DNA of 39,037 nt from a virus. Lineage: Duplodnaviria; Heunggongvirae; Uroviricota; Caudoviricetes. The DNA is taken from positions 1 to 39,037 of IMG/VR virus record IMGVR_UViG_2778261428_000004; one strand, written 5' to 3'. Positions 32,321 through 34,411 of this stretch are shown here, one piece after another. The translations under genes and the position numbers were made by a program. The notes under the pieces were generated by a model, which was not told where the DNA came from, made no database searches, and saw nothing but the letters and a program-made list of their open reading frames with translations. How positions within the stretch are numbered: position 1 is the first letter of the stretch; the number at the start of each line of letters is the position of its first letter.

Positions 32321-33028
32321 ATGGATTTGAATAAATTCGATGAGCCATTCAGCCCTGAAGATATTGAATGGCGAATACAGCAAAGTGGTAAAACACGCGA
32401 TGGCAAAGTGTGGGCTATGGTGCTGGCTTATGTCACGAACAGGGCAATCATGAAACGCCTGGACGATGTTTGTGGCAAAGCAGGATGGCGTAATGAATAC
32501 CGCGATATTCCCAACAACGGCGGCGTTGAATGCGGCATATCAATAAAGATTGATTCCGAATGGGTAACCAAATGGGATGCTGCTGAAAACACGCAGGTAG
32601 AAGCCGTCAAAGGTGGTCGTTCCGGTGCAATGAAGCGTGCTGCCGTTCAGTGGGGAATCGGTCGGTATCTGTATAACCTTGAGGAAGGTTTCGCACAAAC
32701 ATCTCTCGATAAAAAGCAGGGATGGCACAGGGCAAAACTGAAAGATGGGACAGGATTTTACTGGCTCCCTCCATCGCTGCCGGGATGGGCAATACCAGCA
32801 TCAGATAACAAACCATCACCAGAAAATACCAACCAGAAATCTCCATCGGTTGACTGCGAACAAATCCTGAAAGACTTCAGCGATTATGCGTCAACAGAAA
32901 CTGACAAGAAAAAACTCATCGAGCGTTATCAGCATGACTGGCAATTAATGGCTGGCAATGAGGATGCGCAGGCTAAATGCGTTCAGGTAATGAACATCAG
33001 AGTTAACGAACTAAAACAGGCGGCATAA
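32321..33028 (+). CDS. Rad52/Sak-family single-strand annealing protein
   Basis: KRAAVQWGIGRYLY motif characteristic of the Rad52/Sak family; GAGGTG SD. Confidence 0.7.
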   Translation: MDLNKFDEPFSPEDIEWRIQQSGKTRDGKVWAMVLAYVTNRAIMKRLDDVCGKAGWRNEYRDIPNNGGVECGISIKIDSEWVTKWDAAENTQVEAVKGGRSGAMKRAAVQWGIGRYLYNLEEGFAQTSLDKKQGWHRAKLKDGTGFYWLPPSLPGWAIPASDNKPSPENTNQKSPSVDCEQILKDFSDYASTETDKKKLIERYQHDWQLMAGNEDAQAKCVQVMNIRVNELKQAA

Positions 33029-33544
33029 ATGGCAAGCAGAGGCGTAAATAAGGTGATCATTATTGGTCGCCTTGGGCATGATCCAGAAATCAGATATTCA
33101 CCATCAGGAACGGCATTTGCAAACCTTACAGTTGCTACGTCAGAACAATGGCGTGATAAGCAAACTGGAGAGCAAAAGGAGCAGACGGAGTGGCACCGTG
33201 TGGTAATGAGCGGGAAACTGGCAGAAATTGCCAGCGAATATCTGCGAAAAGGCTCTGAGGTTTATCTTGAAGGCAAATTGCGGACAAGAAAATGGCAGGA
33301 TCAAAGCGGACAGGATCGGTTCACTACCGAAGTCATAGTGGGCGTTGGTGGAACCATGCAAATGCTTGGTGGCAAGCAAGGAGGCAATGAACAGTCTTCA
33401 CCTCAGCGAAATGACGGTCAGCAACAAAGACAACAACATCAGCAGCAAGGGAATCACAGCGAACCACCTATGGATTTTGACGACGATATCCCCTTTGCAC
33501 CAGTAACTCTCCCTTTCCCTCGTCACGCTATTCACGCAATTTAA
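33029..33544 (+). CDS. ssb: Single-stranded DNA-binding protein SSB with 15-aa extension beyond the canonical DDDIPF tail
   Basis: [23 protein letters not shown]...TEWHRVV...[12 protein letters not shown] closely parallels E. coli SSB; the ORF continues [15 protein letters not shown]. Confidence 0.9.
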
Positions 33545-33552
33545 GGACTTAC

Positions 33553-34101
33553 ATGAATCACTTGATGGTTGACCTTGAAACAATGGGCAACGGGCCATAC
33601 GCGCCAGTTATTTCTATTGGGGCGGTATTCTTTGACCCGAATACCGGAGAAACAGGAGAAGAGTTCTCGGTAAATATCTCGCTTGAGTCATCAATGCGAT
33701 ATCGAGCGCGTCCTGACGCTTCAACGATTTTATGGTGGATGGAACAGAGTGAAGAAGCCAGAAAATCGCTAACCAGCAACACTCAGGAGCTTTCAACGGC
33801 TCTTTCATGGTTATCTGAATTCATCATAAAGAACGCCAACCACAAACTCGTTCAGGTTTGGGGGAATGGAGCATCATTTGACTGCGTTATTCTCCGCAAC
33901 AGTTATTCGCTGACAGGGCAGCCAGTTCCGTGGCAGTGGTGGAATGACCGCGACGTAAGAACAATCGTCGAACTTGGGAAGATAATAGGATTCGACCCTA
34001 AGCGAGATATGCCATTCAAAGGAATTCGCCACAACGCGCTTGATGATGCCATTCACCAAGCCAAATACGTTTCAGCGATCTGGAAAAAGTTAGCTAAATA
34101 A
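33553..34101 (+). CDS. DEDD-type 3'-5' exonuclease (DnaQ-like fold)
   Basis: MVDLETMG (Exo I motif), later FDCVIL and HNALDDA (Exo III-like) motifs. Confidence 0.65.
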   Translation: MNHLMVDLETMGNGPYAPVISIGAVFFDPNTGETGEEFSVNISLESSMRYRARPDASTILWWMEQSEEARKSLTSNTQELSTALSWLSEFIIKNANHKLVQVWGNGASFDCVILRNSYSLTGQPVPWQWWNDRDVRTIVELGKIIGFDPKRDMPFKGIRHNALDDAIHQAKYVSAIWKKLAK

Positions 34102-34117
34102 TCAACAGGAGAAAACC

Positions 34118-34411
34118 ATGCCAGCGCCTCTGTATGGTGCGGATGACCCGCGCCGCTGTTCCGGCAATTCCGTATCGGAGGTGCTGGATAAATTCAGAAA
34201 AAACTACGACCTGATAATGTCGCTACCGCAGGAAACGAAAGAGGAAAAGGAATTTCGCCATTGTATATGGCTTGCAGAGAAAGAAGAACGCGAGCGAATT
34301 TACCAGACATCAATCCGACCATTCCGCAAAGCCACATATACCCACTTCCCTGAAATTGACCCGCGCCTGCGTAATTACCGCTCACGCTATGGCGCTATCA
34401 GTAATGACTGA
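34118..34411 (+). CDS. Hypothetical protein (97 aa)
   Basis: AGGAG SD before ATG. Confidence 0.5.
   Translation: MPAPLYGADDPRRCSGNSVSEVLDKFRKNYDLIMSLPQETKEEKEFRHCIWLAEKEERERIYQTSIRPFRKATYTHFPEIDPRLRNYRSRYGAISND

Follow-up and report, generated by a model that had tools for sequence, protein, structure and literature searches.

An SSB subfamily of enterobacterial prophages carries a conserved 15-residue tail beyond its acidic tip, at the insertion site of a putative homing endonuclease cassette

A binding protein for single-stranded DNA (SSB) encoded in a 39,037-nucleotide stretch of viral DNA (Caudoviricetes; IMG/VR record IMGVR_UViG_2778261428_000004, positions 1 to 39,037; hereafter the window) continues for 15 codons past an acidic tip of the kind that terminates bacterial SSBs, and comparison across genomes identifies this tail as a native part of a large SSB subfamily carried by hundreds of prophages in the Enterobacteriaceae. 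Comparison of alleles further places the insertion site of an apparently mobile cassette, in which an HNH-like endonuclease ORF follows a recoded tip and a stop codon, at the boundary between the phenylalanine of the tip and the first alanine of the tail. On balance we consider it probable that the tail is a selected, disordered cap that masks the SSB tip, with the Phe|Ala boundary doubling as the cassette site.

The ssb gene (33029-33544; this and all further window coordinates are on the plus strand) runs from an ATG start through 171 codons to a TAA stop at 33542-33544 and matches Pfam SSB and phrog_44 (6.7e-70). It encodes an OB-fold ssDNA-binding domain (residues 6-105, 33044-33343; PF00436, E=2.1e-38), followed by a Gln/Gly/Pro-rich linker (residues 106-148, 33344-33472) that is disordered judging from its composition and pLDDT of 31-43 and is the least conserved stretch of the tailed-SSB alignment. 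The linker leads into an acidic SSB-Ct tip, DFDDDIPF (D149-F156, 33473-33496; GAT TTT GAC GAC GAT ATC CCC TTT), the same as the C-terminus of E. coli SSB. The OB fold, the disordered linker with D-D-D-I-P-F and the identical tip are shared with the SSBs of E. coli and of other bacteria and plasmids (PF00436); whereas in bacterial SSBs the Phe is C-terminal, here 15 conserved residues follow Phe156 (A157-I171, 33497-33541) and there is no free alpha-carboxylate on the Phe. The protein therefore has the features of a bacterial-type SSB save the terminal Phe, the one that defines the SSB-Ct hub. The initial annotation had placed this ORF and its 15 extra codons exactly, and had described the protein as collinear with E. 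coli SSB through DDDIPF, as the Pfam match and the identical tip bear out.

In a single-chain AlphaFold model of the SSB with low overall confidence (mean pLDDT 54.8), the beta-barrel and helix 63-73 were recovered at pLDDT of about 65-76, and the linker, tip and tail lay at 30-44. On SSB the tail is thus predicted to be a disordered linear peptide, and since the confidence of the model is low, the absence of predicted intramolecular docking of the tail counts as weak evidence. Directly upstream, the stop codon of a gene for a Rad52/Erf-like single-strand annealing protein (32321-33028; Pfam Rad52_Rad22 5.1e-26, phrog_1097 4.6e-130) abuts the ssb start codon, and downstream lie genes for an Rv2179c-like 3'-5' exonuclease (33553-34101; PF16473 1e-72, phrog_255) and the anti-RecBCD protein Abc2 (34118-34411; phrog_656 4.1e-55). 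On these matches, the four genes are the recombination segment of the early-left operon of a P22-like/lambdoid prophage.

Over all 516 nt the window gene is identical to the one annotated as ssb in E. coli MS 198-1; some 200 further complete E. coli genomes carry counterparts at 95-99% identity. The SSBs of HK75, mEp235, mEpX2, epsilon34 and g341c have bodies with only about 74% DNA identity to the window and a tail whose amino acids are identical and whose DNA, taken alone, is 97-98.6% identical; when the window was aligned with an SSB gene of this ~74%-identity class, synonymous differences were found throughout the body and almost none in the last ~75 nt. Because the extension is shared by independent assemblies and by diverged SSB bodies, it is real, reproducible and beyond chance. 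A codon-degenerate scan for the tail, which detects synonymous variants only and was left out of the selection estimates, returned 125 loci in viral or genome contigs, comprising 98 SSB-tail fusions, 25 endonuclease-tail ORFs and two rearranged sequences, with the fusions spanning at least five clearly different SSB backbones.

A full-length protein search extended the comparison to related prophage SSB genes that had been called for initially: 116 of the closest 120 protein clusters (90% identity), from Klebsiella, Citrobacter, Salmonella and Escherichia, are tailed, always with 15 residues, and the tail follows the consensus [AS]P[VI]TLPFPRH[ATV][IVM][HY][AV][IL]. A protein database search with a 44-aa C-terminal query gave only six fragments and was uninformative. 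At the DNA level the tail was found in 399 of 5,426 complete E. coli genomes. All untailed relatives that were examined carry an inserted endonuclease or what is left of one. The tail pattern also occurs in an Actinomycetes MAG (L130) and in a Chryseobacterium sp. assembly (L132), where the upstream ORF is a tailed SSB; these matches in non-enterobacterial assemblies are most likely contaminating enterobacterial or phage contigs.

For the selection estimates, a further scan required nothing beyond D-I-P-F-A-P-V with a non-majority Pro codon; about half of its matches were chance occurrences in unrelated ORFs and were removed by their upstream context. Exactly 15 tail codons are kept in 36 of the 37 unique SSB genes recovered, and amino-acid variation in the tail is restricted to T/G, F/Y, A/T/S, A/S and I/V/L. 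As pairwise sums over related sequences, without a phylogenetic tree, Nei-Gojobori pN/pS is 0.18 for tail codons 4-15 (pS 0.44, pN 0.077), 0.02-0.03 for the acidic tip and, within these same genes, about 0.42 for the OB domain. The value for the tail indicates that the peptide is selected, and the still stronger selection on the internal tip suggests that something continues to read it. Invariant positions in the alignment are P158, L161, F163, R165 and H166 in the tail and F150, D152, P155 and F156 in the tip, and the tail closes without exception on I, L or V, with A, S or V as the penultimate residue. Synonymous diversity is lower in the tail than in the remainder of the gene; a search for RNA structure, promoter, terminator or Rfam match as the cause found none (RNA folding z=0.35), and the simplest inference is that recombination has homogenised the sequence near a mosaic junction and homing site.

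The insertion maps to one exact position, the TTT|GCA codon junction (33494-33499 in the window, located by comparison with occupied alleles). In Sf6, Bas106, Huey, IME10 and N7, 435-447 nt (447 in Sf6) separate the Phe codon from the tail codons CCA GTA ACT, where the window, HK75 and epsilon34 have GCA; the window carries the empty site. The SSB match in Sf6, IME10, N7 and Bas106 is accordingly split by about 447 nt, and SSB stops after ...DSDIPF. The Sf6 gp26 ORF, annotated "endonuclease", starts nine bases past the SSB stop and ends in the tail peptide: the cassette gives SSB its stop codon, and the endonuclease ORF, having none of its own, reads into the tail codons. Judging from these reading frames, SSB regains a free ...IPF end through the cassette, and the tail passes to the endonuclease. 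The junction had not been recognised as a homing-endonuclease insertion site in the initial annotation.

Two further properties of a homing-endonuclease target were found, altered flanks and occupancy on different backbones. All occupied alleles have a recoded tip (ATG AAC TTC GAC GAT... in place of ATG GAT TTT GAC GAC... in empty ones) and unchanged tail DNA, the same cassette lies behind both A-type and B-type SSBs and upstream of either exo or abc2, and in Huey an HK75-type SSB is followed by a version of the insert at 43% identity. Decay was also seen: phiKp_30 retains a remnant made of the first 11 and last ~20 endonuclease codons, the last in another frame, and E. coli N1454 has a deletion scar reaching into a truncated exonuclease gene. 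The cassette thus behaves as a mobile homing element, with cleavage and homing as putative activities. The Sf6-type insert occurs in 99 E. coli genomes at 106 places, against 427 places for the tail, which puts fusions of the window's kind at roughly three quarters of tail loci.

More than one nuclease family uses the site, as S135 and ES18 have an unrelated HNH_3 endonuclease (Pfam 1.1e-13) after the same Phe codon; the Sf6-gp26 type is HNH-like, with a weak assignment to the HNH fold. Close members of the gp26 family that lack the tail lie 8-10 nt behind ssb genes ending in free ...DIPF, the annealase of the module being of the ERF, Sak4-like or Rad52-like type; the sequence coding for the SSB tip thus appears to be the target of the family. 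Further HNH_3-type genes are wedged between the annealase gene and ssb (seven loci of the L029 type, two of the L134 type, and L248 at 2077-2544), which makes both ends of ssb homing-endonuclease hotspots in these phages. Chimeric ORFs were encountered that join an SSB N-terminus to an endonuclease C-terminus, or endonuclease to exonuclease (P0013, P0026, P0034), and in L073 and L099 rearranged sequence runs into the tail; these look like products of decay or illegitimate recombination at the insertion site. The Sf6-gp26-type gene (444 nt, at least 95% identity) had no annotated feature in any of the 10 RefSeq matches listed, so a gene between ssb and abc2 or exo appears to be systematically missed.

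Free-standing homing endonuclease genes of phages are known to split or abut conserved genes, as with the T4-type seg and mob genes and the mobE-split nrdA of Aeh1. The SSB cassette resembles them in its presence/absence polymorphism at one position, recoded flanks, occurrence on several backbones and decayed remnants. Unlike in those examples, all that the host gene loses to the insert is a 15-residue tail; the insert lends that gene a stop codon and takes the tail codons as its own 3' end.

Canonical bacterial SSBs stop directly past IPF. Host partners of SSB (chi, ExoI, RecQ, PriA and similar) would be expected to clamp the ring and the alpha-carboxylate of that terminal Phe. In complexes with the SSB tail generally, the ring and carboxylate of Phe177 are the key contacts (PMC6393309), and for chi the terminal carboxylate forms a salt bridge with K124 and an added residue clashes with R128, such that one Gly added after Phe177 of E. 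coli SSB makes chi binding undetectable and impairs growth (PMC3045619). Since partners need the terminal carboxylate, an internal Phe should stop the phage SSB from engaging host pockets; the effect is extrapolated from a one-residue extension and a single partner, chi, and by the same analogy the initial expectation that the extension would disturb partner binding gains support. Capped tips have a single experimental model, this engineered protein (SSB+Gly; Naue et al. 2011, PMC3045619). Like the prophage SSB, it extends past the terminal Phe, although it adds one artificial residue to an essential host protein, whereas the phage adds a natural, conserved 15-residue peptide to an accessory protein.

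A capped SSB would not recruit, or titrate, host enzymes that depend on the SSB-Ct to phage recombination intermediates. The benefit, a sensible one in an operon whose products include the anti-RecBCD protein Abc2, would be that nucleases and helicases recruited by host SSB are kept off phage intermediates, or that they are not titrated. The acidic tip might be retained for roles independent of the carboxylate, and the tail, in which P, L, F, R and H are invariant, may in turn serve some partner as a docking peptide. One observation sits awkwardly with masking: selection on the tip (pN/pS 0.02-0.03) exceeds that on the tail, which is odd if the tip is silenced. Moreover, Sf6, ES18 and S135, in which the endonuclease is inserted and SSB is untailed, are viable phages, so the tail is not essential.

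It is possible, though not likely, that the tail is instead a docking motif that recruits the adjacent Rad52/Erf-like annealase to SSB-coated ssDNA. A Rad52-like annealase lies upstream of the tailed SSB in 130 of the 144 loci surveyed, an adjacency that does not discriminate, because the sampled phage group nearly always has this annealase. There is precedent for such contacts: Red-beta binds the SSB C-tail (PMC6393309), and in HK620 the C-terminal residues of SSB mediate stimulation of the annealase Sak4, which requires the last six residues of its cognate SSB (PMC5928155). The HK620 pair, the nearest biological counterpart, is likewise a phage SSB beside an annealase, placed at the corresponding point of the operon in its P22-like phage, but its SSB ends in a free NDYPPF with no cap, in contrast to the capped prophage SSB (PMC5928155). 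Against the docking motif, a Sak4-like ATPase adjoins some tailed SSBs, the same annealase family accompanies the untailed SSBs of Sf6, ES18 and S135, and the exonuclease is missing from 96 of 163 loci. These points bear equally on the earlier suggestion that the SSB could be a specialist for the phage's own Rad52-type recombinase and exonuclease, which is only weakly borne out; the exonuclease in particular comes after the tail at no more than 67 of 163 loci.

The gene neighbourhood offered no constant neighbour that would point to a partner of the tail, among 144 upstream and 163 downstream loci. Downstream of the tail are Abc2 (84 loci), the exonuclease (67 loci) and a third gene (12 loci). 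The third gene (L200-type) encodes a 106-aa protein, MLSPEQILAALRRDSRNHITAF..., and replaces exo or abc2.

A broader version, which we regard as fairly unlikely, would make the tail a portable interaction or stability peptide: on SSB it would create a phage-private hub that excludes host nucleases and helicases and recruits a factor such as the sliding clamp, ClpX or the annealase, on the endonuclease it would target or tame the nuclease, and ...DIPF-APV tails in environmental phages (below) would reflect a general capped-tip strategy. A narrower one, that the hydrophobic/basic C-terminus ...RHAIHAI-COOH is a degron limiting the amount of phage SSB and of any endonuclease that inherits the tail, is unlikely. 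The tail is disordered and C-terminal on both proteins, its final residue is always I, L or V after A, S or V, and it presumably resembles the C-terminal ClpX signal of MuA; a degron nonetheless leaves the invariant P..L.F.RH core unexplained, and degrons usually allow more sequence variation.

A different kind of alternative concerns where the tail came from. If bacterial SSBs ancestrally end at IPF, a deletion could have fused an ancestral SSB with its stop, followed by an endonuclease gene, to the last 14-15 endonuclease codons, leaving a neutral remnant spread by recombination. The identical peptide does terminate the Sf6 and Huey endonucleases, endonuclease decay and deletions are seen at the ssb locus, and synonymous diversity in the tail is below that of the remaining gene. 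Three comparisons point the other way. Across 79 endonuclease homologues, the usual end is 0-15 variable residues past ...WHKHNKPIY, and the tail is found only in copies at the ssb Phe|Ala site. In the AlphaFold model of the endonuclease (pLDDT 93), residues 1-143 score about 98 and the last 15 fall from 71 to 48, outside the confidently folded nuclease. Finally, the tail DNA variant tracks the SSB backbone and the downstream gene, not the endonuclease subtype. Because the wider family has no tail, the tail is unfolded on the nuclease and its variants follow lineage, it belongs to the SSB locus. With pN/pS of 0.18 and strict tail length on highly diverged backbones added, a neutral deletion scar is quite unlikely. 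Derivation of the tail from the 3' end of the endonuclease gene was itself considered and is ruled out by the tail-less wider family and the unfolded tail in the model.

That the tail is a propeptide, cleaved after Phe156 in vivo to unmask the canonical tip at the right time, is highly improbable. It would account for the extreme purifying selection on the internal tip, but tail conservation reaches well past any cleavage site and no protease is encoded nearby; moreover, we know of no protease for, and no precedent of, removal of an SSB tail. Lastly, canonical bacterial SSBs and the close relatives Sf6, S135 and ES18 do stop after IPF, yet a sequencing error or private mutation that destroyed such a stop and left 15 codons of meaningless read-through, a worry raised in the initial annotation, is ruled out by the comparative data, since the same tail recurs in hundreds of independent assemblies from several genera and in 116 of 120 related clusters, its codons show synonymous and few non-synonymous changes indicative of purifying selection, and the untailed relatives examined all bear the endonuclease or its remnant.

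The reading we favour, a selected cap over the tip, concerns the enterobacterial family, and other capped ends were seen beyond it. About 20 environmental phage contigs (among them L194, L241, L154, L175, L219, L186, L139, L143, L136, L208, L188, L165, L150 and L153) encode SSB-like proteins in which ...D-I-P-F is followed by A-P-V and other short tails, including APVAYLAGT, APVPYLAGA, APVHHLAGA, APVMLI, APVRLI, APVDWI, APVL and APVGGRKVYAF, and capped tips may therefore be wider among phages than the enterobacterial family; as the search pattern forced APV, their environmental frequency cannot be judged from this number. On a Pantoea ananatis contig (L249, 2257-2958), a 233-aa protein ends ...WDDDIPFN*, its tip capped by a single residue. 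This protein has no Pfam match on record and its linker (...GWGQPQQP...) resembles that of a host-type SSB; 42 nt downstream of its gene lies a distant member of the Sf6-gp26 endonuclease family.

A literature search, which did not take in the Sf6 genome paper, found no paper describing the tail peptide or a capped prophage SSB. Databases label the tailed genes plain ssb, and the GenBank record of Sf6 goes no further than a note that 14 residues of gp26 are shared with "E. coli SSB". Judging from the matches listed, about 100 complete E. coli genomes in RefSeq hold an Sf6-type endonuclease gene that lacks an annotation.

The C-terminal tip of SSB is a textbook carboxylate-dependent hub motif and a drug target. 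It also underlies the current rules on how portable recombineering systems are, in which annealases are matched to the seven terminal SSB residues (PMC13490951), and the tailed genes call for caution in pipelines that take "the last 7 residues" from SSB annotations. With the endonuclease polymorphism, nature offers isogenic pairs of tailed and untailed SSBs ready-made. A tailed SSB subfamily would provide a natural separation-of-function allele for the carboxylate-dependent roles of SSB, and a buried tip would give these phages a possible means of insulating their recombination intermediates from host enzymes.
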